The position numbers and the translations under genes are program-made. Of a stretch of 64,000 bases of DNA, positions 1,792 to 48,074 are shown in pieces; position 1 is the stretch's first letter, and each line of letters begins with the position of its first letter. Origin of the DNA: Macrostomum lignano (Eukaryota). The DNA lies in contig NIVC01002619.1 of the NCBI GenBank assembly GCA_002269645.1, positions 7,580-71,579 of the forward strand, in the 5' to 3' direction. Under the pieces are notes generated by a model. That model saw only the letters and a program-made list of their open reading frames with translations. It did no database searches and was not told where the DNA came from.

Positions 1792-4700
1792 CTACTTAGC
1801 GGCCGAGGCGGTCTCAGCCATAGACAGCGCCAGGGCGTGCGCCCGGAAGTGAATTCGAGATTCCAAGCTGATCCCGCGGCAAGACAGACAGGCATCAATG
1901 CAGGCGGAGGCCTCCGGCCGGCGGCCCTCGTCCAGGCGCAGGTGGGCCAGCTCCAGCCAGGCCCAGGCGATCACGTGACGATCTTGCCGGATACGGCGGG
2001 CAAGGCGATCGTCGACGATTTCCTGATGGATGGTTGGGCAATTAACAAGGTGACCAGCGGGTTAACTGGCTGTTTTCTCTTTACCTGCTAACATGCAGGA
2101 CAAGTCATTCATATCATTATCCACACCTGTCAATCATAACCCTAGCCCTACACCTGTCAGTCATAACCCTAGCCCTACACCTGTGAGTCATAACCCTAAC
2201 CCTACATCTGTCAATCATAACCCTAACCCTACATCTGTCAATCATAACCCTAACCCTACATCTGTCAATCATAACCCTAACCCTACATCTGTCAATCATA
2301 ACCCTAACCCTACATCTGTCAATCATAACCCTAACCCTACACCTGTCAGTCATAACCCTAACCCTACACCTGTCAATCATAACCCTAACCCTACACCTGT
2401 CAATCATTACCCTAACCCTACACCTCTCAATCTTAACCCTAGCCCTACACCTGTCAATCATTACCCTAACCCTACACCTGTCAATCATAACCATTACCCT
2501 ACACCTGTCAATCATTACCCTAACCCTACACCTGTCAATCATAACCCTAACCTTACACGTGTCAATCATAACCCTAACCCTACATCTGTCAATCATAACT
2601 CTAACCCTACACCTGTCAATCATAACCCTAACCCTACATCTGTCAATCATAACCCTAACCCTACACCTGTCAATCATAACCCTAACCCTACACCTGTCAA
2701 TCATAACCCTAACCCTACACCTGTCAATCATAACCCTAACCCTACATCTGTCAATCATAACCCTAACCCTACATCTGTCAATCATAACTCTAACCCTACA
2801 CCTGTCAATCATAACCCTAACCCTACATCTGTCAATCATAACTCTAACCCTACACCTGTCAATCATAACCCTAACCCTACATCTGTCAATCATAACCCTA
2901 ACCCTACACCTGTCAATCATAACCCTAACCCTACACCTGTCAATCATAACCCTAACCCTACATCTGTCAATCATAACCCTAACCCTACACCTGTCAATCA
3001 TAACCCTAACCCTACACCTGTCAATCATAACCATAACCCTACACCTGTCAATCATAACCATAACCCTACACCTGTCAATCATAACCCTAACCCTACACCT
3101 GTCAATCATAACCCTAACCCTACATCTGTCAATCATAACCCTAACCCTACATCTGTCAATCATAACCCTAACCCTACACCTGTCAATCATAACCCTAACC
3201 CTACATCTGTCAATCATAACCCTAACCCTACACCTGTAAATCATAACCCTAACCCTACACCTGTCAATCATAACCATAACCCTACACCTGTCAATCATAA
3301 CCATAACCCTACACCTGTCAATCATAACCATAACCCTACACCTGTCAATCATAACCCTAACCCTACACCTGTCAATCATAACCCTAACCCTACATCTGTC
3401 AATCATAACCCTAACCCTACATCTGTCAATCATAACCCTAACCCTACACCTGTCAATCATAACCCTAACCCTACATCTGTCAATCATAACCCTAACCCTA
3501 CACCTGTCAATCATAACCCTAACCCTACACCTGTCAATCATAACCATAACCCTACACCTGTCAATCATAACCATAACCCTACACCTGTCAATCATAACCA
3601 TAACCCTACACCTGTCAATCATAACCCTAACCCTACACCTGTCAATTATACGCGAAATCCTACAAGAGTCAACCATAAACATAACTTTAAAATTACCCGC
3701 ACTTGTCAATCAATCACACTCAACATAAATTGAAGCTGTACAACCTACACACCTGAAAGCACTTGTCGGCAGCCTCAGTCTGATTCAACTGTTTCAAACA
3801 GGCGCCTCGAAGCAGCAGAATCAGAGCGGCGTCATCGTCAGGATAGGGCCAGCTGCCACCAGCCTGCGCAGAGTCGCCCTGACCTGAGGTGACCCGGCCT
3901 CTGTCCAGCTGGTCGGAGGCCAAATCAACGGCCGCTAAAAACGAACGAACCACGTCGGGGCCTTCGCAACCAACTAAAGGGAAGCCGTTCCACACGTAGA
4001 CCACCTCCAGGCCCGGCAGGGTGAGCCGGCCGCCCTGTTCGGCGAATCGGCGAGCCCGGCGCATGGCGAACTTTTCTATTGGCAAACTCTTGCCAGCGAT
4101 GCGCTTGTATAGGCGGGGCACCTGAGCGGTGGTGGGGGTGAGTGACTGGTGTCAGTTGCGATTGACAGGCAATGAGTATTGATGACAATGTATAATGAAT
4201 GACAGTTTTAGGATTATGATTGGCAGGTGTAGCGAGTGACTGGAATATTTGATTATGATTGACAGGTGTGGGGAATGGCATGCATACAGTAGGATCCTAT
4301 TGATTGACAGGTGTGGGGAATGGCATGCTGAGAATCATAATGATTGACAGGTGTGGGGAATGGCATGCTGAGGATCCTATTGATTGACAGGTGTGGGGAA
4401 TGGCATGCTGAGGATCCTATTGATTGACAGGTGTGGGGAATGGCATGCTGAGGATCCTATTGATTGACAGGTGTGGGGAATGGCATGCTGAGGATCCTAT
4501 TGATTGACAGGTGTGGGGAATGGCATGCTGAGGATCCTATTGATTGACAGGTGTGGGGAATGGCATGCTGAGGATCCTATTGATTGACAGGTGTGGGGAA
4601 TGGCATGCTGAGGATCCTATTGATTGACAGGTGTGGGGAATGGCATGCTGAGGATCCTATTGATTGACAGGTGTGGAGAATGGCATGCTGAGAATCATAA

Positions 4701-7700
4701 TGACTAACAGGTGTGGCGAATGGCATGCTGAAGATTATAATGATTGACAGGTGTGGGGAATGGCATGCTGAGGATCCTATTGATTGACAGGTGTGGGGAA
4801 TGGCATGCTGAGGATCCTATTGATTGACAGGTGTGGGGAATGGCATGCTGAGGATCCTATTGATTGACAGGTGTGGAGAATGGCATGCTGAGGATCATAA
4901 TGATTGACAGGTGTGGGGAATGGCATGCTGAGGACCATAATGATTGACAGGTGTGGGGAATGGCATGCTGAGGACCATAATGATTGACAGGTGTGGGGAA
5001 TGGCATGCTGAGGACCATAATGATTGACAGATGTGGGGAATAGGATGCTGAGGATCCTATTGATTGACAGGTGTGGGGAATGGCATGCTGAGGACCATAA
5101 TGATTGACAGGTGTGGGGAATGGCATGCTGAGGACCATAATGATTGACAGATGTGGGGAATAGGATGCTGAGGATCCTATTGATTGACAGGTGTGGGGAA
5201 CGGCATGTTTAGGATTCTATTGACTGACAGGTGTGGAGAAAAGTATGCTCAGGGTTTAGGTTATGACAGACACGTGCTAGGAATGAAAAGCTCACACCTT
5301 GTCCATCAAACCGGCAACGTGGTCTTCATCGCCAGTCGCAGCCTTGGCGCCCTCATCTCCTGTCCCGGCGCCATTCTGGTATTGGTAAAGAAATGCCGCC
5401 TTCTGATAAACCAGCGTGGCCTTACTCCATCGGGACTCTTTGGCTAGTATCTCGGCGTATTTCATAGACAAAAGCCAATCGGCTTTGTAAGCTTGAGTCC
5501 ACATTAGCTCCCAGTAGCAGACAAGATGCAGTTGGATCCATTCGGTCTGGCTTTCAATGCTGCGCTCGAATGCTTGGATAGCTCGGTGCGAGTTGCCGGA
5601 TAGCAGCTGCTGACGGCCCTGAATTTGAGTTTGATAAATAATCAGAAACTTCAGGATAATTTTTTATAAGGAGGTCATTGACCTCCATAGAGAAAAAGCA
5701 AGATAAATCAGAATACTATCCAACCAACAATATATGGGGCCATTGACCCCATCCCCAAATGAAAGCAAAGCACCCTATTCAGAACTTGAAAGCGGTACAT
5801 TAAATAGCGACAGGAGAGGCCATTAACTCCCAGCCTCTAAAAACAATAAGCCAATAAGGGTTTAAGAATCATCGGGTGTCATTGATCCCACAAAAAACTA
5901 AGCGCCAACTAGAATATAATATCTTAACCTCAGAATTATGAGAGGGGTCATTGACACCACAAAAAAGCCAATTAAAACCTGCTACTTAGACCTAGAATCA
6001 TGAGGGGTCATTGACCCCCCAAAAGAAACTAAGAGCCAATTGGAATCTACTACTTACACCTAGAATCATGGAGAGGGGTCATTGACCCCCCCCCCCAACA
6101 AGAAATAAAGAGCCAATTAAAATCTACCACTTACCCCTAGAATCAGGGGGTCATTGACCCCCCACAAGAAATAAAGAGCCAATTAAAATCTGCTACTTAG
6201 ACCTAGAATCATGAGGGGTCATTGACCCCTCAAAAGAAACTAAGAGCCAATTGGAATCTACTACTTACACCTAGAATCATGGAGAGGGGTCATTGACCCC
6301 CACAACAAGAAATAAAGAGCCAATTAAAATCTACCACTTACCCCTAGAATCAGGGGGGTCATTGAACCCCCCCCCCCCCACAAGAAATAAAGAGCCAATT
6401 AAAATCTGCTACTTAGACCTAGAATCATGAGGGGTCATTGACCCCTCAAAAGAAACTAAGAGCCAATTGGAATCTACTACTTACACCTAGAATCATGGAG
6501 AGGGGTCATTGACCCCCACAACAAGAAATAAAGAGCCAATTAAAATCTACCACTTACCCCTAGAATCAGGGGGGTCATTAAACCCCCCCCCCACAAGAAA
6601 TAAAGAGCCAATTAGAATCTAAGACTTACGCCTAGATTCATGCCGGAGGGGTCATTGACCCTCCGTGGAAGCTAAAGAGCCAATCCACCGCTAGCAATGC
6701 CCTTATATACTCACCTGAAAGTACAGGAACATAGCCCCATCGGGGTGAGCAGCTAAGCAGGGCTCCAACAGCTGGTGGACAGCGGCTAAATCGCAGCCTC
6801 CGGCACCCAGGATATGAGCAAAGGTAGTGTGATAGACTAGCAGTATAATCCTGCCCAGGGGTGCCCGGACACTGCCGTCCAACTCGGTGGCCAGCCGAAT
6901 CTGCTCGAGTCCGTATCGCCTGTCGCCGGAGAATCCAACGAACTCCAACAGTCTGAGCAGTCGGGGCGGCAGCAGACTCAGCAGCAGATTGAAAGCGCCT
7001 TCTCCAATTCTAGCGCCGCTTTCGAAATGCAAGCGCAGTTCGGCGTTCAACCAGCGGCGCTTGTGCAACAGGCGCCAGCACTCTTTGTAGGCTTTGTAGC
7101 ACTCGCGAATCTTGATGCCGCCCTGGATTGGATTGTTGTGATGCGGTCTTTGTTCAGCCTAATCCAGTCGCTGTACAGATAAATCAGTTTGTTTAGCCTA
7201 ATCTAGTCTGAAAAGATAACTCAGTGTTTGTTCAGCTTAATCCAGTCTCTGTACACATAGACTCTGTCTGTCTCAAATCTCAAATCTCAAATCTCAAATC
7301 TGATCTTTGTTAACGTCGAACTCAGTCGATTTACAGTTTTTGTCTTTGTTTGCACAAAAATTTAATTGGACGTTTTTATGGTGAACTCTGGTCTTTGTGG
7401 TCTGAATTGTGGTCTTTTTCACAGTGAAATGTGGTCTTTCTTCACAGTAAAACCAGTTCTTTGTTCACAGTGAAAAGTGGTCTTTGTTCACAGGAAATGT
7501 GGTCTTTCTTCACAGTAAAATCAGTTCTTTGTTCACAGTGAAAAGTGGTCTTTGTTCACAGGAAATGTGGTCTTTCTTCACAGTAAAATCAGGTCTTTGT
7601 TCACAGTGAAATGTGGTCTTTCTTCACAGTAAAATCAGGTCTTTGTTCACAGTGAAATGTAATCTTTGTTCACAGTGAAATGTGGTCTTTGTTTACAGTG

Positions 7701-9391
7701 AAATGTGGTCTTTGTTCACAGTGAAATGTGGTCTTTGTTTACAGTGAAATGTGGTCTTTGTTTACAGTGAAATGTGGTCTTTGTTCACAGTGAAATGTGG
7801 TCTTTGTTCATAGTGAAATGTGGTCTTTGTTCACAGTGAAATGTGGTCTTTGTTTACAGTGAAATGTGGTCTTTGTTCATAGTGAAATGTGGTCTTTGTT
7901 CACAGTGAAATGTGGTCTTTGTTCACAGTGAAATGTGGTCTTTGTTTACAGTGAAATGTGGTCTTTGTTTACAGTGAAATGTGGTCTTTGTTTACAGTGA
8001 AATGTGGTCTTTGTTTACAGTGAAATGTGGTCTTTGTTCACAGTGAAATGTGGTGTTTGTTTACAGTGAAATCGATCTAGAGTCCATTTTTAAAAGATTT
8101 GTTTTATACGAGTGTATTCGAAACCATCAGGCAAATTTACCTTGACAAAAGCAATAAAATTCTCGTCCTGAAGAAACGTGAGCACAGCTTTTTCTAATAA
8201 CAACTCAGCGTAGCACAGCTCAGCGTGGCACTGCTCGTCAGTGAAATCGTTCGGCTGACGAGACGCTACGAAGCCTCGGCGTCGTAGCCGCTGAGAGACT
8301 TGCAGGCCCTGTTTAGTGGCGTCCAAAGCCTGCTGTATGTTAGGGCGCTCCATAGTCATGGAGGCCTGCAGGTAGCAGATGGTGGCGTAGCCCAGGCTGT
8401 GGTACATGGATGTGGCCGACCTGGGTATTGTTGGTGTCATCAAATGTGTGACATTTTCTGTGCCTTATCTGACTACTGGATCTCTAATAATGGCGTCATC
8501 TATATCTAATAATAGCGTCATCGATATCTAATAATAGCGTCATCGATATCTAGTAATTGCGTCATCGATATCTAATAATAGTGTCATCGATATTTAATAA
8601 TGGCGTCATCGATATCTAATAATAGCGTCATCGATATCTAACAATGGCGTCATCGATATTTAATCATGGCGCCATCGATATCTAGTAATTGCGTCATCGA
8701 TATCTAATAATAGTGTCATCGATATCTAATAATAACGCCATCGATATCTAATAATAGCGTCATCGATATCTAATAATAGTGTCATCGATATTTAATAATG
8801 GCGTCATCGATATCTAATAATGGCACCATCGATATGTAATAATGACGTCATCGATATCTTATATTGGCGCCATTTATAACCAAAAGTACATTTCAAGTGA
8901 TTTAAAAACCAACTCACAGCGGTTCCATAACGGCCCTGGCCTTCTCAAACTGGTTACTAAGGAACAGGTCTAGAGCATTTTGAGCTTCGCCAATCGACTG
9001 GAGCAAGTCTGGCAAGTCAGCTGGTGGCGGCAAAGGAGGCAGTTGAGCGGCATCCCCTAGCAACTGAGAGGCTGATTCCTCTCGTTCCAAGGCCATTGCA
9101 GAATCAACACCATTTACACTGTGAAAAGAAAAATTAAATTAGTGCTGAGACATGCCTGCATACAGAATTGATATTTTAAATAAAAACCTAATCACTTACA
9201 CTGCATCTTGATCTTCAGCTTCATCATCAGATAGAAACTCGACAGCATCTTCAAATGCCTAAATTTTAAGTTATGTTAGCTTAGTGTCTTAATATGTTAA
9301 ACAATTTATTTATTAAAAAAGTAGCAAGTAAAAAATGATAACTTACCTCTTCATCATTCATACTCTGAAGACTTTCTTTGTCCTTTTCCAT
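1792..9391 (-). CDS. TTC39B: TTC39-family tetratricopeptide repeat protein (TTC39A/B-like, IML2 family), 8 coding exons, 637 aa
   Basis: Exons (minus): 9391-9347, 9258-9200, 9118-8918, 8420-8141, 7122-6715, 5618-5298, 4121-3753, 2022-1792. All junctions are GT-AG, phases are consistent, and the 1914-nt frame is open. Family motifs: SMYHSLGYATI, CHAELCYAE..LEKAVLTFLQDENFIAFVKGGIKIRECYKAYKEC, HFESG..IGEGAFNLLLSLLPPRLLRLLEFVGFSGDR, CYWELMW, ESRWSKATLVYQKAAFL, RIAGKSLPIEKFA, LESRIHFRAHAL. The paralog letter (A/B) is not resolvable by eye. Confidence 0.93.
2122..3660. repeat. 27-bp minisatellite containing two telomeric AACCCT hexamers (TTC39 intron 7)
   Basis: Unit ACACCTGTCAATCATAACCCTAACCCT, about 56 copies. 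Source of the spurious 546/530/226-aa ORFs. Confidence 0.97.
4258..5250. repeat. 40-bp minisatellite (TTC39 intron 6)
   Basis: Unit TGATTGACAGGTGTGGGGAATGGCATGCTGAGGATCCTAT, about 24 copies. Confidence 0.97.
5670..6680. repeat. About 70-bp palindrome-cored repeat with about 210-216-bp three-unit higher-order structure (TTC39 intron 5)
   Basis: 14 copies of the core GGGGTCATTGACCCC or variants. Confidence 0.9.
7400..8072. repeat. 23-bp minisatellite ACAGTGAAATGTGGTCTTTGTTY (TTC39 intron 4)
   Basis: About 29 copies. Confidence 0.95.
8485..8875. repeat. 22-bp minisatellite GCGTCATCGATATCTAATAATA (TTC39 intron 3)
   Basis: About 17 copies. Confidence 0.93.
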
Positions 9392-10269
9392 CTTTAAAAC
9401 TGAATAAAGCACATAAAAACAAAAAAAATGGATGGTATATCAACTGTCTTGTTTATAATGCCATACTTAGATAGCTTTTGAAACTTTGACAGTTTCAAGC
9501 AATCAGCTTAAAATGCATTGGCCCCCTGCTATTTTTAATTACTTTGAAATCTTTTCTGGGCCAATTTAGGGTTTTAATTTTGAAGCTTATTGAATAAGAT
9601 TAGCAAAAAATACAAATAAAATTAGTAAGATATAGAGCATTCTGCCCTAAAAATACAAAGCTTAAAGATTATAAGAACATATAATTTAAAAATATTGAAA
9701 TAGTTCTATATCTAAATTATCAAAATTAAGAAAAACCTTGTTGCAGGAAAAACTTGACAAGAAAACCTTTAGCAAGAAATCCTCATTGCAGGAAAAGCTC
9801 ATGGCCTTGTGCAAGCAAATTTCAGTAGAATTTTTTTGCAATAATTTTTGTGCTTCTAATAAGATATAAATAATGAAAAAACTTGTTAAAATAAATAATA
9901 TTAATTTGATAGGCCTACTAATAATATTATTAAATACACAATGATGCATATATAATTCTAAATTTATAGATAACAAGCTGTTGAAACCTGCGGATTTTGA
10001 ACCTGGGGAATTCTAATCCCTGGAACTACTTTTGCATGAATTCTGAAATCTAAGGCCATACACAAACAAAGACTTGTTAATAGTTAGTAGGATAGAAGTA
10101 GACATAAAATGGACACATTTGTGTAAAATTAGGATTTGAAGGCAAACATTGAAATTGTTGGCTGGGGTACTGCACAGAATGTCAGGCAATGTCTGTCTGA
10201 CTCTAAAACATGTATTGGCAAACTTTGGCCTCTCCCTGACTCTCCCTATGTCCCTAGCATCCTTTCCTT

Positions 10270-11220
10270 TAAAATTTCTATTGTCTCTTCTGTTTCCTCT
10301 CTTCTCTCTCGTCCCTTGTCTCTCCTCTCTCCCCTCTTTTCTCATATCTTCCCTCATCCCTCTTCTCTTTCATCTCTCTTATCTCATCTCTTGTCTCTTC
10401 TTTTCTCTCTCCTCTCCCCCTCTACTCTCTTCTCTTCCTTCTCCTCTATTCTTTTCTCTCTTCTCTTAACTCTTTCCTCTACTCTCTCATCTCTCCTCTT
10501 TCCTCTCTCTCTCTCCTCTCATCTCTTCTTTCCTCTCTCCCTTCTTCTCTCGTCTCTTCCTTCACCTCTTTGCTCTCTCATCTTTCCTTTCTCTTCTTTT
10601 ATCTTTTCTCTCTTATCTCTCCTCCTCTGTCCTCTCTCCTCTCGTCTTTGTAATCTCTCCTCTGTTCCCTCTACTCTCTCATCTTTCATCTGTTCACTCT
10701 TGTCTCTGCTCTCTCATCCCCTTCTTTAATCTGGCATCTCTGTCTTATATGTTCTCTCACCTCTCTCCTCTGTACTCTTTTCTTTCCCCTCTTGACTCCT
10801 CACTTTCCTTTCTCCTTTCTTCTTTTCTCTTCTCTTCCCTTTTCTATACTCTCTCTCCCTCTCCACTCTCCTCTCTTGTTTATCTCTCATCTCTCATTTC
10901 TCATCTCTCCTTCCACCTCTCACATCTCTACAACCTTAGAGATGTATCTTTATCTCTTCTCTCTTCCCTTTACTCTCTCATCTCTTCTTTCACCTCTTTC
11001 CTCTATGCTCTCCTTTCTGCTGTCTCCCCTCTCCTCTTATCTGCAGCTCTCTGCTCTCTCATCTCTACTCTCTCCCCTCTTCTCCCCTTCTCTCTCATTG
11101 TCCTCACCCCTCATCTCTCCTATTATCTTTTATCTTTTCTTTTATCCCCTCTGTCGCCTCTTCTCTCTCCAAATCGTCTATTCCTTCTTCTTTCCACTCT
11201 CATCTGCCCCTCAGCGGCTC
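10270..11220. repeat. Polypyrimidine (CT-rich) low-complexity tract
   Basis: Almost purely C/T; produces spurious Ser/Leu ORFs. Confidence 0.9.
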
Positions 11221-12065
11221 AGCCATGAGCTGGATTCTTTATCTGGCCTTTGAGGTAAAAGTCTGCCCATCCCTGCTTGGAAAGCCAGTTTGTGGGACAT
11301 AGTACTCTTATGGTTGTTCTCATGCTTTGATCACGTCATCTTTCTTGCCAATTTGCAGCCCTGAAAGGAATTTGTGTATCTTTAGCTCTATTGCAATCTG
11401 TATCAGTCTAACAACCAAGGAAATATGCATTTCTTAGGAGGCCATTTAAAATTTCCATGGTGTGCCTAATTTAGTAGGGTTGTATAGATTGCATCGCATT
11501 GCCTTTTCATAAATCTTTTGCTTTTACAAACCATGCTGGATTCCATCAATTTGCCAATTGCCATCCACTGTTAAACTGCTGTATAGTTTGCCAATACAGA
11601 GGGGAGGGCAGTGGTTAGAATTTCTCACTAAACTGTTATGGCTAAACATAGCCTCTCTAGTCTCTACTCTCAAGTGGCAAGTCAAGTAGCTAAAAATTCA
11701 AATGGCCAATTCAATATAGAATCTTCAAATAGGCCTACTTTTAAAGAATGCCAATTGATTTGTTAAAGACAATTTTTCTACAAGTTTTATATCAAAGACA
11801 AAGTGCTAATAGTATAAGCTTGTCATTTGGCAATTGACTTTTGCAATCAGTAAGCTTTTTGATAATTCTACAATGTCATTTCAAATGAAGCACAATAGCA
11901 CATTATTGCACAAGGCCTATTGGTCAATGTTTGACCTACACTCAATTTTTTATGGCATACATTTGTAATTATTCAATTTTTGTTCAAGCATATACCCAGT
12001 GTGATCTATACTAGGCCCTGTAGACTGCATTAACATACACTAATAATACTTAAGCCTAACCAGGC

Positions 12066-15000
12066 CGGTTTCCATGCATTTCGGTGCCCGTGCTTTTTGG
12101 TGCCCAGCATTTTGGTGCCCCAGATTGTCTTTCGGTGCCCCAGTTTATATTATGCCAAAATGATGATAATAAAAAAGAAATCCTATAACAAATATAATAA
12201 ACGAGGCCAACTCCTCCGTTGGCGGAGTGAGGGGATAGATAGAACTCCCATCGCCAGAATTTCATTCCCCGAAACCATCAGCTGAATCCAATGACACGAA
12301 TCCCATCGTCCAAATCCTCTCCAAATCCTATATTAACCTCCCAAAAACCATGTTGTTTTACCTGTGTGCAAAAATTGACTGCCTGCCATCGTCCAGACTG
12401 AGACTCTCGTCTGTCTCCTCTCTCCTCTTTGCTCTCTCATCTCTAATCTCTCCTATCTCCTCTCTGCTCTCTCATCTCTAATCTCTCCTATCTCCTCTCT
12501 GCTCTCATCTCCTCGCTTATCTATCATTTCTCATGTCTACTCTCTTATCTCTCCTCACTACTTTCTCCTCTCAACTTTTTCCTCTCTCCTCTTTTATCTC
12601 TTCTCTCTCCTCTCCTTTATCTCCTCTCTGCTCTCTCATCTCTCTACTTTCTCCCCTCTCCTCTCTCCCTTATCCTCTTGCTTCTCTCTCCTCTCTCTCC
12701 CCTCATCTCTACTAATTTATCTCTTCTCTCTCGTCTTTTGGCTCTACTCCCTCTGTCTCCTCTTTCTCCTCTCTTACCCCTCTCCTCTCTCCTCTCAATT
12801 CCTTCATCTCTTCTCTCGCCTTTATTCTCTTTTTTTCTTTTCTCTAATCTGTCCCTTTTAATTCTCTCTTTTCATGTTCTCTTTCATCTAATCTTTTATC
12901 TACTCTAGCCTTTTCTCTTTTCTCTATTCCCTTTCAATTTAACCATTTCATCCTCTCCATGAAACAGCTATCATCAAAATCCTCTCCGTTAAACTGCAAT
13001 CTAGCTTGTATCATCCTCCTTCAAGCTACAATCCATCGATTTAAAAAAATACTATCTCTATCAAATTTCAGTCAATCAAGACTATGAAACTGAAGTCTAT
13101 AAAAATATGATTTTTACTTGTCTGGGTATACGTCAAAAAATCTTCCAAATCTTCCAAATCCTCCATAAAACCTCTGAAATATCATAGCATGTTTTCCCTG
13201 TTTACAAAAATTGACTGCCATCGTCCAGACTGAGACTCTCTCCTGTCGCCTCTCTCCTCTTTGCTCCTTTATCTAATCTCTTCTTTCTGCTTCCTGCTCT
13301 CCATCTCCTCTCTCATCTCTACTCTTACTTTCTTATCAATCACCTCCCATCTCTCATCTCTCCCCTCTACGCTCTCATCTCTATTTTCTCATCTCTATTC
13401 TCTCATCTTTCCCCTTTTGCTCTCTCATTTGTTTTTTCATCTCTCTCTTCTCTCCCTTCTCTTCTCGCTTCGCTCTCTCCCCTCTTCTCTCTATCTCTTC
13501 TCTCCTGTCTTCTCTCAATTCTCTCTATCTCTCCTCTTCTCTCTCATCTCTCATCTCTACTCGCTTATCTATCGCCTCTCCTCTACCCTGTCCTCTCTCT
13601 CTCCTCTTTTTTCTCTCTCGTATCTCCTCTCTGCTCTCAATTCTCATACTCCTATTTTCTCTCTTACCCTCTCCCTCTTCATCTCTCATCTTTCCCCTCT
13701 TCTCTCTACCGTCTCCTGTCTCATCTCTCCTCTCTCTTCTCTCTCCTCTGTACTATCTTATCCCTCCTCTCTCCTCCCATCTTTCCTCCCTCCTTTGCTC
13801 TCTCATTTTCCTCTCTCCCCTCCTTTCTTCCCTCTACTTTCTCTTCTCTTCGCTCTCCCTCTTCATCATTCCCGCCTCACTCCCCTCTTCTCTCCCCTCT
13901 GGCTCTGTCGTCTTTAATCTCTTATCTCTCATATCTACTGTCTTTCTATCATCTTTCTATCCTCTCTTCTCCTTGAAATCTCTCTTCTCTTTACTCTCTT
14001 ATCTGACGGACTGAAAGCGCCGATAATCAAACCAATTGAAATTTGTTACCAGCCTCCTCCATTACTGAATTTACTCAAATGATAGCTGGCCTGAATTTGT
14101 GTACTCAACCCCCCCCCCAACTACAATCTTGGCAGAAATTTTAAAAGTATGGAATCGTTTTTTCAATGCTGTGCTTTTTGTTTTCATATTTAAAGCAAAT
14201 AACTTAAATCCCCGAATTCAGCGTTGCAAGATCCTTCCAGCAATATAAGTCTCTCCTCTCAAAGTTAAAAAAAAGGAACAGTTAACGTCTGAACTTCCCG
14301 GTTCAAAGCATTAAGTATCGAGTGTACATTCACCTGCCTGCTGTTTATTCATTGAATTTCACTGCCCAGCTAATATACAGACAGGCTGCCTTTTGAAAGG
14401 CGCCGATAGTAAAACCAATTGAATCTCGACACAGTCCTATCTATCTGTTTACAATGTACATTGCTATGTACACTCAGCCCAAACCAACCCTCCGTTCTGG
14501 AGGGAAGCATTAAATTTAACTGAACCCCCCAACACGCGGGGGTTTTATTAGCATTGAACCCAGAACACGCATCAACCACCCCTCCAATACACAGCGACCT
14601 GCGGGGGGAGGTTGGGGTGGTTGTTTTTACAATAATGCCACTGGAGAGGCAAAGTGGCCAAAGAAGGTTAAGAAAACAGTTTTTTGCTTTTTTAACGGAC
14701 TTGACTTTTAATTTTTCAACATTAAAATAGCCTATTTGTTGCGTAGGAAAATTTTGAATTGATATATGTAAGTCCCGCATTTGAGTTGCCAGCCGTCTAG
14801 GAGGAGATACGCGTTAAACCCGGCCGGTCGATCGACCCACTCAGCTTTAGATATAAGAGATACTTTACAAAACATTTGATATTTTTAATAAAAGCAGTAT
14901 TAATTTTGTTAAACTGGCACATTTCTTGAAATTGGAAAAATCTATTCAATTTAATTGCATACATTTGCTGTATCCTGTATATACATGTAGTTTATGCATG

Positions 15001-15243
15001 TAGTTAAAACTACATGTAGTTTTGATCGAAATTATGAAATGTGACAAGTCTACATGTATTTTAGTTAGTACTGATTTTTTGAATCACCCGATCATGTTTT
15101 ATTTCACTTATAAATCACTTAAAGCACTTACTGCTAAATTAGAGCTCAATCTCTATATTTTGTGTCCAATTCTAATGTATAATTTGGCCACCAAAAAGCA
15201 AGCTGGGGCACCAAAAAGCACAGGCACCAAAGAGCGTGGATAC
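12066..15243. mobile_element. Possible 3.2-kb non-autonomous TIR element carrying CT-rich tracts
   Basis: The left end (tttcggtgcccgtgctttttggtgcccagc) is the inverted complement of 15196-15240 (gctggggcaccaaaaagcacaggcaccaaaga). No transposase or TSD was found. Confidence 0.4.
12405..14000. repeat. Two CT-rich tracts (12405-12920, 13240-14000), each preceded by a duplicated leader
   Basis: aaaaattgactgcc..atcgtccagactgagactctc occurs at about 12370 and 13205. Confidence 0.85.
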
Positions 15244-15636
15244 TAGAGGTCGGACGGGATCCCAATCCCGAAATCTCGGGATCCCAAGGAAAATTGAATT
15301 CCTATCATCCCATGGGACCAGAATCCCGACCCTAAAAAACTCGAGATTCGGGAACAGGTCTTTTGATTAATAATTTATAGAATTAGTGATTACTTGAAGG
15401 TATTTTGCTTTAACTTGTACTTGTTACATTATTTACTTTGTTGGTTACAAAACTTCATATCAATTTTGTTGTGTTTTACTTCTTGATCTTGAAAATTTTT
15501 TCTCAATTTTGTTTAACTTTACATGGACAATACACTAAAAGACCTGATATCCCAATTCCCGAAATCCCTGATCCCGAGAAAAAAATTATTCCCGATCCCG
15601 ATCTTGCCCGAAGATTTCAATCCCATCTGACCTCTA
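15244..15636. mobile_element. MITE with TAGAGGTCRGAYGGGAT terminal inverted repeats
   Basis: tagaggtcggacgggat at the left end and tcccatctgacctcta at the right end, with ATCCCG/CGGGAT subterminal motifs. No clean TSD. A related terminus is seen near 18570-18606. Confidence 0.6.
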
Positions 15637-17372
15637 AATGGCTCTAATGGATACCACCAGGCCTAACCTAAGCCAAGACAAGTAATGGCTAGAGTTCTAG
15701 CACTAGAACCCATTTTCTAATGGCTAGGCCCTATGGATCCAGCAGTCGAGTCTTCTGCAGGTAACTTTCATCTTTCATCTACTAGGCCCCCTAATGAAAT
15801 CTTAGAACATTAGTAGGCACTTCAGTGAGAAAATTAAATTTCAGAAATTGTTATAGGCTGCTATTTCACTAGATAGATCTTACTTTCCCATTTCCAAAAT
15901 GGCCAAACTTTAGTGATTTGGTTGAGTAATAAGGAAACTACAGCTATTTTAGTAACCCCAATTTGTGCCTTTAGCCAATGGAATTTTTACATTACGGTTT
16001 GTGATCATTTTTGGCCAAAAAGTTGGCTTTTGTCTTTGAACACTTGTAATTAATTTTCTAGCCAACCAAAATGACTGTGCTTGGTGTCATTTTGTTCAGT
16101 TTTTTAGTGTTAATTGTATGAATTATATATTTTAATATTATTTTATATGCCCAAGTTGCTAAGCTAATTGAAACAGGATGGGTGTATGAAATTTTGACTA
16201 TTTTAACCAGATACGCAATGATTGCAATTTTAAAAATACAATAGCATCTGTTCTGCTTGCTTAATTTATACAAGGCTAGTGTCATTTTGTTCAGGTTTTT
16301 ACCTACTATAATACTATTCTACTTCTTGCCCTAAATTTTTAATGCATGACAGACACCCCAACTGCAATGTAATGTGCTGTACAGGCTTTGCGCATGGGTT
16401 TATTAAAAAACGGTTTTGCCTATCGTGTTCAGCATAGCAGAATTAGTTAAATGACACAGAGAACTAGTTTGCCGGAAGGCAGAGTCTCACAAAAAACACG
16501 AAATACACGTTTCAATGGGTATTTTACATGTAAACGTATCAAAAAAAGAAACCTCCACAAAATTTTTGCGCCTATAGCTATTGGCAAGCGGTTTTTTTTA
16601 CTGTGCTTGTATTGTCAATAGGTAATGAAAAATATAAAGAGAAACAATGCAGGAAAAGGATTTCATGGAAAATTTTGGATTTGAAATTTTGCATAGAGCC
16701 ATATGGGCATTAAAAGAAAAAAAAATTTTTTTTTAACACCAGAAAAATGTTTCTAAATTATCCCTTTACACTATAAAACCTTTGTTTCCATTATAAGAAA
16801 CACATTGCAGCTAAGAAAAAGCATTTTCTGAACCACTGTTTTTTTATTCATTTTGGCTTCAATTTTATATTCCTCCTAAAAAATGGTCAACTTTAAAAAT
16901 AGACAGTGCAAAAAGTATAACAAAGCTAGACTTGCAGTTGGTGTCATTTGAAAGAGCTCCTTTTTACCTTTTAAATGCATATTTTACTTTCATCCTGGCT
17001 TCTATAGTTTCTTTAAAATCGCCCTTGAAAAATTGAACTTTTTTCTTACTTTTTTGCCATTGGCACGCACTTCTTATAACTCACTGAAGTCCCTAACATT
17101 AGAAGTTTTTTGCTTTGAATATCATTATTTTGTTTTGATCTTTTAGGGCCTAGGCCTATCTTGAACAAAATCTCAATATCAACCATCCATTAAAAAGTAA
17201 AATGTTTACTGCTATATTATACCCATAAATTGCACTGAATTCATAAAAGTTGGGACTCGAGATTGGTCGGGATTGGGATCAAGATTTATCATTGCATTGG
17301 CATCCAGGCTTACTTAGGTATGCGATGGCTAAGTACATGCTTTGGGGGCAACCTAGGCCTAGGGATTCACCT

Positions 17373-17670
17373 CATACGTGCGCAACAGTCGGCCGAGTCG
17401 GCCGATCCGGCCGACTGATTTGGCAGCCAACCAAGGAAGTCGCAAAAATGTCCACCTAAAAAAATACCTAAGTAGTAGTACTAAGTAGCTGACGAGGCAT
17501 TTTGGCTTAATAAAACAGTCATAGTTACTCCTGCCGTTTACCCAAAGTTGCGTTAATTTTGCTTTAGGGTTTTTTTACATGTAAGTCGCATTTTTGGCCA
17601 AAAACTACGTCGCATTTTTGTTAAAACTAAGTCGCACGGCCGACCGAATTTTGGAGGTTGCGCATGTATG
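17373..17670. mobile_element. hAT-type MITE, young copy
   Basis: TIR CATACRTGCGCAAC at both ends, perfect 8-bp TSD ATTCACCT, CpG-rich interior. Confidence 0.85.
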
Positions 17671-18801
17671 ATTCACCTGGCCGTTTCTATTGGCAACACC
17701 ACATGTAAGTCGCAATTGGACGGAATGATAGTCATGTGACTGCTCTCAGCCAATAGCGACTTACATGTGTGTGTTGCTAATAGAAACGGCCGAGTGATTC
17801 CCAAGGTTGCGCATGTATGGAAGTAAGGATCCTTTATTATTATAATAAATAGGCACATGTATTTATTAGTAGGCCTATATTATTAGTCAAGTGACATTAC
17901 TATACTAGCCTAACTTGTTTGTAGTTTAGTATAAGTTAGAGAGGCCCTACTTAGCCTACTACAGTACTAGATCGTAGAGGCCAGACAAACTCAGGTTTTG
18001 GTCAAGTCAAGTGACCAAACTTTGGGAGTTCGAACTGAGTATTCAAGTCAAGCTTTGTTGAGCAGTCGAGTTTTTGACAATGTTGGACTGTTGAACTGAA
18101 CGGGGAACCGAAAATCCGGTCATCAGTCGAGTAGAAAGAAAATTCGGTAGTTAGTGAATTTCAAACCTCAACCTATTTGACTATTGTCATATTTTTTGCA
18201 CTAAACTTTGTAATTTTTATTTTGTTAGTATTTCCAATAATTAAAGATTATTAAATAATACCTTCAGTAAAAAATCGGGCTTTTCAATTATTTTTTGTTT
18301 GAGTAACTTAATCAATTCATTTAAGTGAAGATATTCTAGGAAATCAAAAATAACCTCGAAGGCTCGCTCGAAGTAAATAAACGAATCAATTTGGCATACT
18401 GCCATACTTGCCTCATTTAGTCCTTTTTGAAATTGCTTCTAAGCGATTTTTTGGGTATACTTAAAATTAAAAAACCTTTTATAAACCCGCCGAACTTTTC
18501 CCGACTCCTGACACTTACTCCCGACATGGTCGGCAATCTGAAAAAACACCCGGGTCCCAACCAAGAACCAAGTTGGGATCGGGATCGGGATCCCGGTCGG
18601 GCTCTACTAGGTTCTATGTATTATCTTGCAATAGCAGCATACTTCTATGGTGATCACCTTCCTGCTGACTGGCCAGCCTTTGCCTTCCTTCGTATTAGCT
18701 CCCCTGGTGACCTGGTCCTGGTGCCTTGTATTGCTTTGACTGCTGCTTGGAGTTGGATTCTGGCTAGGCTAGAATTGATAAACTTATGTTTTGTCCACTG
18801 T

Positions 18802-19120
18802 TATACATGCGCAACAGTCAGCCGAGTTGGCTGATCTAGCCAACCAATTTGGTGGCCAACCAAGGTAAAATGCAAAAATGCCCATCCTAATTCCTAGGGG
18901 CCTAATAAATACCCAAATAGTACTAAGTAGCTAATGAGACATTTTGCCTTAATAAGACAATCATAGTTACTCCTGCCATTTACCCAAAGTTGCATTAATT
19001 TTACTTTAGGGTTTCTTTTACGTGTATATCACATTTTTGGCCAAAAACTACATTACAATCATATTTTTTGTTAAAATTATGTTGCATAACTGACCAAATT
19101 TTGGAGGTTGCGCATGTATG
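18802..19120. mobile_element. hAT-type MITE, older CpG-decayed copy of the same family
   Basis: Colinear with 17373-17670, same TIRs, diverged TSD TCCACTGT/TCTATTGT. Confidence 0.8.
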
Positions 19121-22100
19121 TCTATTGTTACCAAATGCTGTTGAAATCAATTGGGATTAGCCAGGGACTGCCATGCTGCAGGAATTCCCACATCTGCAGG
19201 AATTCTATGTACTAGTATAGGTCCTATAGGAAACAGGAAAGTATAGTTTTTTTAAAGTGTCTATATGAATTTTAAAATAAATCTAATAAAGTCAAGTTTA
19301 CCTATTTTGTTATATATTAGACTTGAGGTTTTATAGGTTCTCTATATTGTTGAGAGAAACAAGGTGTTTGAAAGTATGTCCCATATTATAACTTTGAAAA
19401 GAATGTTCCCTGATTTTATTATTCTAGAAACCATGAAACTTTCTCCTAAAAAGTTTTATACCTTTTGACAAACAGTATTCATATATATCTAAACCAATAA
19501 GGCTTAGCTACACAAGCTCATGAGTAAAACCAAATTTTTGTTGCTTGCTACTGAAGCCAACAAGGGGCAAAGTCACCTAGCAATAGTTATCTGCTATTTT
19601 TAAGGTTGGGAGATTCAAATAGTTTTGCTAGGCATACTTATTATCCATGCAACAAATGCAAAAATACAATTATAGATGTAAACAGGAACAATAAATATGT
19701 AGACAAACATAGTAGAAAGATGAGCAACTGTGTTTCTCTTATGTAAAACTATTATACTATAATTATGTGGTTCAATGGCTAGTAGTATAAAATTGGTCTA
19801 GGATCAAGGTGCAGCTTAGCTGGACATTGGAGGATATAGCCCTCATCATGCTTACAATGCCTAGAAGAAGGCCATTGATTCCCTTCCTTAAAGGATTTGC
19901 TTCTGTTATATTCTATTCAACCTGCTTTGTTAGTTTCCCAATATAAAAAAATTATAACCAGTCAGCTAATTTGTTAGAAATAAAAATGTTGAAATTTCTA
20001 TGGCCTGTCAAGACTAGATTGTTGCAGCTTGTAGTTGTGAGGCAAATCTTGGATTAGTTTGATTTGTTGAAAACCTTCAACAAACATTGTGATGAGCTTG
20101 CTAGTCAAATAGACCATATAGCTCAAATTCAAGCAATGCTGCAAGACCCACTTACTAAGCCACTTCTGCTGGTCAATGACTATAGCATCACTATAGAGCA
20201 CCTTGAGCAGCTTTTCTAAAGTGGAAACATATAGGTTCCTGCCTTGTTGTATATTTCTATGGTTGAACTCTATAAGTCTTGGCTATTGTGTTTATCTTGA
20301 TTTTAATTGACTACATTGAAAACGGGAATTTGATCCTAGTATGGGAAAGTAAAAAAAAATTAGTTGCTGTGGGGCCTAGGATCAGCCTAGAATAGCTAAA
20401 GATTCTGCTTGCTCATTGTGTGCTAGATCTGAATTTGTTCTTGTATGAAATCATGGCACTTACCAAATAGTCACCTTTTTATTAGCAATTGTTATATAAT
20501 GATGGCATGAATTTTTATAACATATCAAGAGTGTTAGCAATGTAGCACTTTGCACTCAGTTACTTGGGTGGTCAGCAAGTCTTGAATTCTGTTTGCCATT
20601 TCTGTTATAGTGACTTGCAGGCTATGCTAATAATCATCTTCTAGGCTTTCTCTCATGCTTGAACCTCGCAAATTATTTCTTAACTATAGTATAAGATGGT
20701 ATGTCATCTTCAAAGGTGGCCATTATGTTGAAATGAATTTCCTATGGCAAATATTTGATGATAGTGTGATGCTAGATTTTTTATGACAAATGTTAAAAAT
20801 GGTTTTCTAAAATAAAAGCTTTTTTAGGTCTTTCATAAAGCCAATATGCTTCAAATTGAGTTAATAAACTCTCAATATATAGTGAATTGAATAACTAACA
20901 TAAGGTAGGTAAGATAACTGCTTCTATGTTAGGCTGCAAACTTTTTTTATCAACCCTTGCATTGCAATTCTATCCTACCAAGATAAAATAAAAAGAATCA
21001 TGAATTGACAATCTATGCAAGCAAAAAAATAAAAAAACTAAATGTTTAAAAATTGTTTTTATCTGTCACTATGAATTTGTCATTCAATGCATTTGTCACA
21101 AAAAAATTAACAAAGATTTTTTTATATTGGAAAGACAAAACAATATCTATATAATAGAACTAAAGAACCAAAGGTATGGCAAATATTGTGGGTAAGAAAG
21201 TTTAAATAATGAGGTCTATCTGGGGTCTACCTATTGCTACCTATATAAGGAGTATTGGCTTTGACTTTTGCTTCTTTTTTGAGAAAAAAAGTTGCCTATA
21301 ATACTTAATAAATTATATTAAATGAGTAGTGTATATATGATTTTATAATATATAATACATTTGATTATAGTTTTAAGGAAAATTATGAGTCTTGATTTAG
21401 GATTTATTTTAATCTGGGTATTGAGGTGGGCAGCAGCTACTGTGTGCCAAATGAATTTGTATTTGTAGAGAGCAAAAAGTTCTTATAGGTGTATGTATAC
21501 AATCAGGTTAAATAGGCCAATGCAACAATTAGTCAGTCAACTCCAACTCCTACACACTAGGCTAGGTGGGCAACCCCTACTAGGTTAGTGGCACACAGAT
21601 TTGGCATGATGAGCAGGTTGGTTGAAGGGCACCTAAATGGCTGCCTTCAGGTGCACTTGTACTTGACTGCCACAGTATGATAATTTTTAAATGAGGGTCC
21701 ATTTAATAAAGGATAATATTACAAGTTATTTAGAATCAAACCTTTGAAGTAATCCCAGACTTTATACAAATAAAAAATTAGGAAACCAGGATGCTAATAT
21801 ATACCTTAGTTCCATTATACAAGAATAGATTGGGAGGGAAAGAGACCCTGTCTCTAATAACCCACACTAGATTTTGCCTAAGGAAATGATGGTCTCCTCT
21901 TGGAAAATGTGCAATGTCTAGGTGAGGCTTTTGGAGTCCATGAGCTATGGCAATGGAGTATGTACCTATGGTACCAGGATTGAAAGATGCAAGATAAAGA
22001 CAAACAGGGGAAGTAAGGGTTGATAGAGACCAGAGGTTGGCAAAAGTTTTACTTAAAACTTTACACTAACATTGTAAAATCTCAAAAGACCCTAGTGCCT

Positions 22101-22294
22101 GATAGAGAGGCTTTATGGGCTGCATGTAGCCTGTAGGCCGGAGTTTGCTCACCACTGATTAAGATATCAATATCATGCCGCTACTTGTGAGTAGTGCTAC
22201 TAGTAAATTTGTCCAATTTTAGCACTGTGAACAAAAGCCAAGTGCAGAAAATGTATTTCCTATTTACCAAAAAATTGCATGCCAATCAAACGCA

Positions 22295-25200
22295 ATGTCC
22301 GCTTCGGCAATTTACATCCTGGACACCAAGGGCAAGGTGTTAATTAGCAGGAATTATCGCGGCGATGTGCCAATGTCTACTATTGAAAAATTCATGCCTC
22401 TATTGGTTGAGCGAGAAGAAGAGGGCACAGTACAGCCTGTGCTGTCATGTGACGATGCCTATTTTATGTACATCTCGCATAACAATGTCTACCTGGTTGC
22501 CACCACTAGGAAGAATGCCAATGCCGGTCTCGTGTTCACCTTTCTGCACAAAATTGCCGACGTGTTTGTTGAGTACTTCAAAGACCTTGAGGAGGAGAGC
22601 ATTCGGGATAATTTTGTGATTGTGTATGAACTGCTCGACGAGGTTATGGACTTTGGATTTCCGCAGACTACAGATACGAGAATTCTGCAGGTAACGATTA
22701 GCTTGCTTAGCTTACCTTGTCCCTAATTAATTATCAAAATCCCAATCTGACTAATTAATTATCGAAATCTTAATCTTAATACCAATAATAATCGATCTCC
22801 CAGGCCTCCCAAGCCTACTAATTATTTATCAATATCTCAACCCTACTAATTAATTATCGATATCTCAACCCTACTAATTAATTATCGATATCTTAAACAT
22901 ACTAATTGATTGTCGATATCTCAAACCTACCAAATAATTATCAATATCCCAAGCCTACCAAATAATTATCAATATCCCGACCCTACCAATTAATTATCGA
23001 TATCCCAACCCTACCAATTAATTATTGATATCCCAAGTTTACTAATTAATTATTAATGTCTCGACCCTACTAACTACTTATCGATATCCAAACCCTACTA
23101 ATGTATTATCGATGTCCCAATTCCTACTAGATAATTATCGGTATCTTAACTTTACTACTTAGTTATCGTTATCTCAACCATATAAATCAATTATCAGTAT
23201 CTTAAACCTACTAATAATTTATCGATATTTTCAAATCCCTGCTAATTAATTATGATATCTCCTAATTCCTAATAATTAGTTTTAAAAAATCTCCTAATCG
23301 CTACCCATTAACTATTAACATCTTCCAATACTTACAATTTAGTTTTGAATAGTCTAATCCCTACTAATTACTTTTAATATCCAAATCCCCTCTTTAATTA
23401 TAGAAATCCCATAATTGACTTTTTAAATTCCCCAAAAAACAAGGAGTTCATCACCCAGGAGAGCCACAAGCTGGAGGTGGCCCCGAAACTGCCGCCAGCC
23501 GTTACTAACGCCGTCTCGTGGCGCTCCGAGGGCATCAAATATCGCAAAAACGAAGTCTTCCTAGACGTTATCGAAAGCGTCAATTTGTTAGTAAGCGTTA
23601 GCGGCAACGTGTTGCGCAGCGAAATTGTTGGCAGCGTTCGTATGCGAGACTATCTGAGCGGAATGCCCGAACTGAGGCTGGGTCTCAACGATAAAGTTCT
23701 GTTCGATGCTACTGGAAGTAAGTTGTTTGATTTTTTCATTATCTTTGAAAATACATGGAGAAAATTGTATGTCGGCTACACTACTTAACTTAGTAGCTGA
23801 ATTTGCATTCTATATCCACAAAATAGCGGGTCCTTTAATACTACTAACTAAGTAGCTGAATTTGCATTTTTAATCTACAAAATAACGGTCTATTTACACT
23901 ACTTACTAAGTACCGAATTCGAATTTTAAATCCACCAAATAGTGTGTCTATTTACACTACTTACTAAGTACCCGAATTCGAATTTTAAATCCACCAAATA
24001 GTGTGTCTATTTACACTACTTACTAAGTACCCGAATTCGAATTTTAAATCCACCAAATAGTGTGTCTATTTACACTACTTACTAAGTACCCGAATTCGAA
24101 TTTTAAATCCACCAAATAGTGTGTCTATTTACACTACTTACTAAGTACCCGAATTCGAATTTTAAATCCACCAAATAGTGTGTCTATTTACACTACTAAC
24201 TAAGTAGCTGAATTTGCATTTTTAATCTACAAAATAACGGTCTATTTACACTACTTACTAAGTACCCGAATTCGAATTTTAAATCCACCAAATAGTGTGT
24301 CTATTTACACTACTTACTAAGTACCCGAATTCGAATTTTAAATCCACAAATAGTGTGTCTATTTACACTACTTACTAAGTACCCGAATTCGAATTTTAAA
24401 TCCACAAAATAGTGTGTCTATTTACACTACTTACTAAGTAGCTGAATTCGAGTTTTAAATCTACAAAAGCGTGTCTATTTTTACACTACTTACTTATTAA
24501 GTAGCAGGATTCGCATATTCAATCCTAAATACTCGACATTTCTTCATTTTTCAGGAGGCAAGAGCAAATCTGTCGAATTGGAGGACGTCAAATTCCATCA
24601 GTGCGTCCGTCTCTCTAGGTTTGAAAACGACCGTACGATCTCTTTTATACCGCCCGACGGTGACTTTGAGCTGATGTCCTACCGGCTTAATACTCAGGTT
24701 AAGCCGCTAATCTGGGTTGAATGCGCCGCGGAACGTCACGCGCATAGTCGAGTCGAGTACATGATCAAGGTGAGCTGGAGTTTGATCTATTGGCGTTTGA
24801 CTATACCGATGGGTTAGTAGAATCCACCGATGGGTTAGTAGACTCTACCGATGGATTAGTAGTCTCTACCGATAGGTTAGTAGACTCTACCGATGGGTTA
24901 GTAGACTACCGATGGGTTAGTAGACTCTACCAATGGATTAGTAGACTCTACCGATGGGTTAGTAGACTACCGATGCGTTAGTAGAATCCACCAATGGGTT
25001 AGTAGACTCTACCGATGGGTTAGTAGACTCCACCGATGGGTTAGTAGACTCTACCGATGGGTTCGTATTTAGTAGACTCTACCGATGGATTAGTAGACTC
25101 TACCGATGGGTTAGTAGACTCTACCGATGGATTAGTAGACTCTACCGATGGGTTAGTAGACTACCGATGGATTAGTAGACTCTACCGATGGGTTAGTAGA

Positions 25201-47454: not shown

Positions 47455-47714
47455 GCGGAGATAGAGAGGGTACATGCAGAGGGCGGGGGTAGAGGCGGAT
47501 ATAGAGGTTAGAGATGGAGGGCTGGAGGTAGCTTGTAGTAGGTGTGGGGCAGTGTACATCTGCCTCCATCTCTCCCTCTAATTTCCCCTCTCTGTCTCGC
47601 TCACTTGGTCCGGCGTTATAACTGCACCGTACAACAGCAAAAACAACAAAAGCAACAAAGACAACAACAAAAAACAACAAAAACAGCAACAACAACAGCA
47701 ACAACAGCAACTGG

Positions 47715-47952
47715 TTACGGTCGAGGCGCTGCAGCTCCGCTGTGTGGCCTCCCGGGTCACAGGCGTCATGAACCGCGTGCTCGTCGGCGCTCCTGCGCCC
47801 ACCACCGAGTGGACCGTCGCGCACATCGTGCCGATCCCGAAGAAGGCATTGACAACGCGGAAAGAAGACCACCGCGGGATCTCGCTGATGTCCTGCACCC
47901 CGAAGCTCTTCAACCGGCTTCTGCTCGATCGTCTGCAGTCGGTGCTGGACCG
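47715..47952 (+). mobile_element. Non-LTR retrotransposon (RTE-like) reverse transcriptase fragment
   Basis: EWTVAHIVPIPKK..DHRGISLMSCTPKLFNRLLLDRL is the typical RT domain 0/1 motif. GC-rich, truncated on both sides, and preceded by an (AAC)n-rich tract at 47630-47712. Confidence 0.85.
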
Positions 47953-48074
47953 GAGATAGAGGGGTTAAAAGTGTAAGGGCCGAGGTAGACATAATGAAGG
48001 TATAAAACCGAGAAGTCTAATTGCACTCTGTAAAACATGAAGCGTGGCACACACCCTCAATTACCCCAGCTAAT

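Follow-up and report, generated by a model that had tools for sequence, protein, structure and literature searches.

The 64,000-nucleotide stretch analysed here (the window; positions 7,580 to 71,579, forward strand, of contig NIVC01002619.1) belongs to the genome assembly of the flatworm Macrostomum lignano, and a CHMP7 exon within it is 99% identical to a protein of that species. The subject of this study is a block of about 3 kb, almost devoid of the dinucleotide CpG, that lies before the gene AP1M1. The locus is triplicated in the assembly (C2619, C35 and C981; C numbers denote contigs throughout), and AP1M1 lies beside the block in all three copies. AP1M1 (plus strand) and TTC39 (minus strand, 5' end near 9400) are divergently oriented, and 12066-15659 and 15816-17095 are inserts without counterpart in C35 and C981. 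The features of the locus are as follows (o/e, ratio of observed to expected CpG; LTR, long terminal repeat; MITE, miniature inverted-repeat transposable element):

8916..9392, minus strand: first three exons of TTC39, partly CpG-depleted (o/e 0, 0.48 and 0.50), at the fading end of the desert; from splice joints, with PF10300 in later exons
9400..12066, minus strand: mirror-image desert before TTC39, including 11230-12050 and broken by simple repeats; 0 of 7.5 and 2 of 27.7 expected CG
17670..18620, no strand: CpG-retaining island, putative promoter region common to AP1M1 and TTC39; o/e 0.91, mostly an old repeat copy (17825-18620)
18620..22135, plus strand: CpG desert before AP1M1, putative outron (promoter to trans-splice acceptor); from CG positions and o/e, common to the three locus copies, with outron status argued from genes in which the depleted zone is intron 1
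18803..19121, no strand: inverted-repeat (MITE-like) element of about 300 bases, old and CpG-decayed; from comparison with an intact copy on C3083
19176..20377, plus strand: hAT transposase relic with stops and frameshifts; 74-75% identity to copies on C2363, C417 and C3083
19417..19422, no strand: site of a 2.8-kb inverted-repeat element, occupied in C35 and C981 and empty in the window; from comparison of the copies
21422..21674, minus strand: Ty3/gypsy-type solo LTR; TG...CA ends, 4-base target duplication, full-length copies with gag and the order reverse transcriptase-RNase H-integrase
22282..22690, plus strand: first exon of AP1M1, spliced-leader trans-spliced, ATG at 22295; PF01217, o/e 0.83, contigs of runs X16, X19 and X20 start at 22274

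Only two CG dinucleotides (20323 and 20667) occur in 19121-22135 against 83.7 expected (o/e 0.02; Poisson p 1.6e-33), in agreement with the manual count of a first-pass annotation made from the sequence. GpC, TG and CA all exceed expectation (1.42, 1.25 and 1.13), so that the loss is CpG-specific; the abundance that the annotation had reported holds for these three, but CTAG reaches merely 1.12 times its Markov expectation. The desert is wider than first reported, beginning near 18620, about 500 bases further left (18620-18803 holds one CG against 9.8 expected), and CpG returns 140 bases ahead of the AP1M1 acceptor. The segment 11230-12050 was rightly described as similar (2 CG against 26.6 expected). 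The exons, described as full of CpG, are so in AP1M1 exon 1, in four later stretches of TTC39 (o/e 0.87-0.96) and in CHMP7 (1.0, checked as 500-base bins only), but not in the three 5' exons of TTC39. Most introns of TTC39, AP1M1 and CHMP7 in the window are filled with tandem arrays with units of 11-59 bases; many such arrays are CG-free because the repeat unit holds no CG, and unmasked CpG profiles are therefore misleading.

Elements can be recognised in about half of the block, and about half is without a copy outside the three loci. Decay in relics was scored as aligned CpG bases changed relative to a younger or intact copy of the same element. The relics have changed from CG to TG or CA, which bears out the earlier proposal that dead elements had been eroded here. 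All 16 aligned CpGs of the solo LTR are gone relative to a young copy, 14 of them to TG, CA or TA, with other changes at 31/219. The MITE-like element has transitions at 14/36 CpG bases against 13/92 other C/G bases, with the intact C3083 copy as reference; a young MITE-like copy at 17372-17667 is missing from C35 and C981. The hAT relic matched, by tblastn, an 840-residue frame on C151 (E 2.4e-7) and a long open frame on C2450 (E 4.3e-11). The C151 frame contains the hAT dimerisation domain PF05699 at 34.5 bits, above the cut-off; because identity is only 27-36%, relic and frame are regarded as related families. Several hAT families elsewhere in the assembly have long open transposase frames and are CpG-normal. 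An exon-like open stretch had also been noted on the minus strand; the frame exists (20001-20282), but it has no Pfam match and is the antisense of the plus-strand transposase relic, and Pfam searches of ten frames from the block and its nearest copies gave no family above the cut-off. The 2.8-kb insert of C35 and C981 has an o/e of 0.41 and 23/110 CpG transitions relative to a copy on C2045, itself partly decayed, and shows no clear decay gradient along its length in that comparison. Among the three copies of the block, TG changed to CG at 0/304 sites against 36/1259 for other T-to-C changes (p 4e-4); the process of CpG loss has therefore outlasted the split of the copies, and new CpGs are still being removed.

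The extent of CpG decay depends on where a repeat lies and not on its family. Within depleted surroundings, five independent LTR insertions have lost 53/88 CpG (other changes 72/1143), whereas four in CpG-normal surroundings have lost 6/71 (other changes 40/900; inside versus outside p 3e-12). This pooled count excludes a nested copy on C1507, which has lost 10/18 CpG and has flanks with o/e 0.77 and 0.31. A solo LTR on C100 has lost 12/18 CpG at 4/231 other changes. The dependence on position is also visible as a gradient within one full-length element on C3221 that touches a desert at one end: CpG transitions number 47/384 in its first 1650 bases and 4/573 in the rest, and CpA transitions 11/213 and 2/373, respectively. 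The changes in this element comprise 25 TG and 20 CA, the two strands being alike, and T-to-C changes and transversions are likewise somewhat raised in the desert-side part. Copies of an element are thus not marked wherever they lie, and near-identical tandem LTR elements on C33 are unchanged despite duplication. The latter (C33:109305-121851) are three elements with four shared LTRs, located about 4 kb from a gene that, from its motifs, we take to be DNMT2-like.

The position of deserts relative to genes was read in a panel of 20 chaperonin (CCT) and proteasome genes picked by family search, 10 kb being read for each; EF1-alpha and ribosomal-protein loci, both located in the assembly, lie outside this panel. 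Genes with an upstream same-strand neighbour were taken as operon members, on adjacency only. A desert is present on the 5' side of all nine genes without such a neighbour (o/e 0.03-0.46) and of none of the 11 with one (o/e 0.71-1.25 in the 10 measurable), and for 6 of these 11 a desert is found at a greater distance upstream, where the unit appears to begin. A wider test of 23 versus 11 genes (p 3.5e-6) includes genes picked after their desert had been seen, leaves out three masked downstream genes and takes exon 2 as the anchor of several genes; the CCT/proteasome subset is the only one free of bias. A passage in PMC8629364 puts the share of genes that belong to operons at 15%. In four 100-kb samples of long contigs, 12 desert segments make up 20,150 of 253,749 unmasked bases; seven of the 12 have the 5' side of an exon at most 1.2 kb away and none has a 3' side that close, four others adjoin such segments or narrowly miss the limit, and one is unplaced. 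Genes next to deserts in these 400 kb include those for NTE, CASC3, endonuclease V, an M20 peptidase, an RsmB-type methyltransferase and a PCI protein; inspection by eye showed no desert alongside the sample's genes for GPCR, CD36, Maf, Prospero and DDR. The division between housekeeping genes (9/9 unit heads) and tissue-type genes (none) is that of invertebrate gene-body methylation.

In four genes intron 1 constitutes the desert: a short first exon precedes it, and the DNA ahead of that exon is CpG-normal, which argues that the zone lies downstream of the promoter. The counts are 2 CG of 65.9 expected in CCT5, 6 of 52.6 in CCT3, 33 of 97.8 in PSMA6 and 34 of 95.1 in MAP4K, and the 500 bases upstream of exon 1 have o/e 1.09, 1.16, 1.18 and 0.66, respectively. 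Open frames from ATG to splice donor were among the grounds on which these short exons were judged. Exon 1 of DNMT3 (510 bases) is itself depleted (o/e 0.25-0.32 at a third-position GC content of 0.4), the corresponding values of exon 2 being 0.8 and 0.7. The signal therefore falls inside the transcription unit, past the promoter, in CCT5, CCT3, PSMA6, MAP4K and exon 1 of DNMT3, and would do so in AP1M1. A location upstream of the start site, suggested by absent T skew, was dropped once the intron-1 deserts had been found; these four are also without T skew, and splice-site motifs in deserts show no strand bias. Zones measure about 1.5-4 kb and in most genes end within 500 bases of a spliced-in exon, beyond which non-exonic DNA is near normal (o/e 0.73-0.89). 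Zones do not simply stop at the first acceptor in every case: one dwindles within the C3221 element, at about 2.7 kb, and another extends into the three small exons of TTC39, so that both an exon boundary and a length limit seem to act.

Divergent gene pairs on C25 and C176 have a CpG-normal island between two deserts, as does the window with its later inserts set aside. Because the window thus reads desert, island, desert between divergent genes, we infer that 18620-22135 is the outron of AP1M1 and that 17670-18620 contains the promoter. The counterpart of the island in C35 and C981 has an o/e of 0.78-0.79. The island was at first taken for unique DNA, wrongly, as it consists mostly of a repeat of about 780 bases, which keeps its CpG in the window (17825-18620; 0.91). 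Of 78 matches listed for this family, 20 at other loci were fetched; all 20 have o/e 0-0.31 and lie within CpG deserts. This suggests that the repeat is inserted or retained beside housekeeping promoters. AP1M1 itself is trans-spliced, since a 13-letter loose end on the X16 and X19 contigs at its start matches the spliced leader printed in a passage of PMC8629364, and its promoter is therefore hidden. Runs X11, X16, X19 and X20 are taken as RNA by guess only; they cover 19121-22135 almost not at all (X16, X19, X20) or at a low level (X11), and a 158-letter X16 contig at 21854-22010 was not used as evidence.

At the AP1M1 trans-splice site (window positions 22274-22281), the assembly shows the last letters of the spliced leader in all three locus copies. 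X5 and X2 contigs disagree with it at 22274, 22277 and 22280, giving an AG acceptor. The spliced-leader letters were probably introduced in error when the assembly was polished with RNA reads, and further trans-splice sites in the assembly may be affected. Elsewhere in the window, 47582-47956 resembles, as does 4001-4280 of another fetched locus (L202), a fragment of what is presumably a non-LTR retrotransposon reverse transcriptase, a label given from its motif and not matched in Pfam. The contig end (62297-64000) is rich in GC and CpG; both of its strands carry long open frames, none of which matches Pfam.

Later exons and introns are spared. As had been claimed, housekeeping exons show no CpG depletion: o/e is 0.96 in 11 exons of chaperonin genes and 1.01 in 11 of proteasome genes (0.98 and 1.02 for CpG that spans a codon boundary), NCG codons are used less than expected (0.54 and 0.72), and there is no synonymous CpG excess. 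Synonymous transitions, with events counted once in 14 three-copy sets, number 11/894 at CpG and 18/1763 at CpH (ratio 1.2, p 0.69); in CpG-normal non-exonic DNA the transitions at these sites number 12/670 and 62/4037, respectively (ratio 1.2, p 0.61). Exon depletion consequently does not run through the gene body, only first exons being affected; nor are host genes unmarked, given that intron 1 and exon 1 are depleted and later exons are not.

In 20 repeat copies compared with one reference, C-to-T rates were 0.46 in CG, 0.18 in CA, 0.13 in CT and 0.06 in CC. The same order is found in old relics and in the young C3221 element; outside zones the rates are flat. CG > CA > CT > CC is the order of DNMT3. 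No preference for the 5' base was seen (rates 0.10-0.16). A plant-type preference for CHG was considered and found unsupported: CAG exceeds CAH in the hAT relic, the LTR shows no such excess, and values for CCG are low. Genes for DNMT1, a DNMT2-like protein, DNMT3 and SRA-domain proteins are present in three copies each. DNMT1 contains RFD, BAH and methyltransferase domains, and no CXXC-type motif was found at the expected place in its sense-strand translations. There are two SRA-domain genes (C2851, C446 and C3241; C876, C1156 and C2935), one of which may be UHRF1. DNMT3 has an ADD domain and a diverged PWWP domain below the Pfam cut-off: residues 144-213 are without a Pfam PWWP match and align with the PWWP of DNMT3A/B (E 6e-13), after which the idea that this domain had been lost was dropped. 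W330 is kept in it, D333 is changed to E, W306 to Y and F303 to Q. A passage of PMC7615734 names the tryptophan kept here and the aspartate changed here as binding residues, and a passage of PMC9246332 links non-CG methylation to DNMT3A. A single-sequence fold of DNMT3 (predicted local distance difference test score 36) was unusable.

The reading that we favour, and hold to be probable, is methylation of the gene-body type that covers only the initial 2-3.5 kb of a housekeeping transcription unit, its outron or first intron, with CpG affected more than CpA. Germline 5-methylcytosine on the first part of the unit would deaminate, and CpG would be lost to TG and CA. The zone would begin just behind an unmethylated promoter, here at about 17.7-18.6 kb, and would extend to the first spliced-in exon, or to about 3 kb if no such exon is reached sooner; transposons landing in it would decay as passengers. 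More speculatively, DNMT3 could be the writer, in view of the order CpG > CpA > CpT > CpC. Its guide might be a chromatin mark of the 5' region, for instance H3K36me2; this is guesswork, although the geometry would suit. DNMT1 and UHRF1 might act as the maintenance pair, and the use of such methylation might be to prevent transcripts from being initiated by elements that lie in outrons and first introns.

Several points weigh against this reading. The whole case rests on sequence decay, and the position of the AP1M1 promoter is itself deduced. The short first coding exons of CCT5, CCT3, PSMA6 and MAP4K are presumed from N-terminal motifs; Pfam gave no match on the two short first exons tested, and no short first exon was found for CCT4 or PSMB2. 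Deserts do not show the T-over-A skew or the AATAAA depletion of later introns, they are richer in repeats than normal DNA (16% versus 9%), and two of them, the desert beside the C3221 element and one on C176, could not be tied to a gene. The zero overlap between deserts and exons is partly circular because the exon finder misses CpG-poor exons, and a pairwise count, which repeats events, gave a two-fold CpG excess in exons (39/2187 versus 35/4070). Comparison of the three copies of the block shows CpA, CpT and CpC alike (0.061, 0.050 and 0.060). Finally, the changes in the DNMT3 PWWP are not peculiar to the species, as the other three of the four DNMT3 sequences compared also lack the phenylalanine.

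A mark targeted to transposons was the assignment of the first-pass annotation, which had proposed a plant-, vertebrate- or fungal-like pattern. On such a reading old elements would be methylated as such, and zones would look positional only because some families insert preferentially near housekeeping promoters. It would account for the recognisable half of the block, for the 780-base family (at 16 of the 20 loci the nearest called exon has its 5' side facing) and for the decayed nested LTR on C1507, and a passage of PMC12460157 describes such a pattern in chaetognaths. We consider it improbable, since LTRs of the same family and similar divergence are undecayed outside zones, decay ends within the C3221 element, the otherwise desert-bound repeat has retained its CpGs in the window, depletion reaches the first coding exon of both DNMT3 and TTC39, and 84% of desert bases are without a repeat match in the fetched sample, although so small a sample undercounts repeats. 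With zones located at the 5' end of housekeeping units, the evidence indicates instead a 5'-restricted gene-body pattern. The signal is real and strong and was rightly read as a scar of methylation; its assignment to repeats was most likely wrong.

Enzymatic mutagenesis, either resembling fungal repeat-induced point mutation (RIP) or by a deaminase near start sites, in place of spontaneous decay of stable 5-methylcytosine, would suit the very high rates (as in the C100 solo LTR), CpA transitions in the C3221 element that reach 40% of its CpG rate, the graded spectrum of the 20 repeat copies and the raised T-to-C changes and transversions. It is nevertheless unlikely: AID/APOBEC deaminases show a 5'-base preference that is missing here, the strands are alike in the C3221 element, single-copy exons are struck, unlike in RIP, and the order of contexts is that of DNMT3. 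The AP1M1 promoter could also lie at 22135-22280, the desert then being methylated DNA upstream of it, as in a shore or a plant CHH island. The deserts' lack of a transcription-type strand skew and the return of CpG 140 bases ahead of the acceptor would fit, but in CCT5, CCT3, PSMA6 and MAP4K the desert is downstream of a coding first exon, and in the divergent pairs a CpG-normal island separates the two deserts, which makes this placement equally hard to credit, if not slightly more so.

Methylation restricted to the 5' part of the unit would resemble invertebrate gene-body methylation in that broadly expressed, conserved genes are hit, the promoter is spared, most transposons and tissue-type genes are unmarked and the genome-wide level is low. 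According to passages of the respective papers, arthropod methylation falls on housekeeping genes with enrichment on exons (PMC7343188) and that of annelids covers gene bodies (PMC11292947). Unlike in these groups, the signal of Macrostomum lies on the outron or first intron, once per unit, and later exons and introns are undecayed. The chaetognath Paraspadella gotoi is likewise a trans-splicing animal with unmarked coding exons and decay in transposon sequence, and some chaetognath DNMT1 paralogues resemble that of Macrostomum, in which no CXXC motif was seen. As described in part of PMC12460157, methylation is confined to transposons in P. gotoi, nematodes and ctenophores; in P. gotoi the mark follows the elements, LTRs most, and DNMT3 has lost ADD and PWWP. 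In contrast, young full-length LTRs and old out-of-zone copies of Macrostomum are undecayed, and its DNMT3 keeps ADD and a diverged PWWP.

The geometry from promoter to first spliced-in exon is also that of a mammalian chromatin zone, known on the Macrostomum side from sequence alone: in mouse liver, H3K36me2 lies ahead of the first internal exon and H3K36me3 begins there (PMC6134763, in part), H2Bub1 also falls at that exon (PMC4199367, in part), and a passage of PMC6478690 reports that H3K36me2 is read by the DNMT3A PWWP in vitro. Mammalian methylation, unlike that predicted here, extends beyond the H3K36me2 zone. Fungal RIP prefers CpA. Like RIP, which is listed in a passage of PMC9246332, the process in Macrostomum ruins inserted elements by heavy C-to-T change with a CpA component. 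RIP, however, is triggered by duplication, whereas decay here is set by position, is dominated by CpG and strikes single-copy first exons. A more far-reaching version, which we regard as tentative and more doubtful than not, is that Macrostomum has shifted gene-body methylation from the mRNA-coding part to the discarded 5' leader: DNMT3 would read an H3K36me2-type zone reaching from the promoter to the first splice acceptor and methylate CpG and CpA, a RIP-like positional trap that mutates transposons beside housekeeping promoters and leaves exons unmutated, and deserts would then map hidden promoters and operon heads genome-wide with no more than the sequence as input.

Two papers give a low level of 5-methylcytosine in M. 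lignano, in passages that do not state its distribution, and a passage of a 2022 review calls the methylation pattern of free-living flatworms unknown. Searches of the literature on Macrostomum methylation, outrons and transposons and on DNA methylation of outrons in general, with hits judged mostly by their listings, gave no description of 5' CpG zones; a 2015 genome paper with a methylation measurement may already describe the distribution. The sequence predicts zones of 2-3.5 kb behind housekeeping promoters, one per unit, amounting to about 5% of the sampled DNA (20 of 400 kb), a pattern that differs from both of those described for trans-splicing animals and for invertebrates. It bears on the proposal, made in a passage of PMC12460157, that trans-splicing is linked to loss of gene-body methylation, which here would seem to be displaced and not lost. 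If the prediction is true, deserts would locate the promoters hidden by trans-splicing in a species with transgenesis and RNAi, and would offer a test of DNMT3 targeting in an invertebrate.

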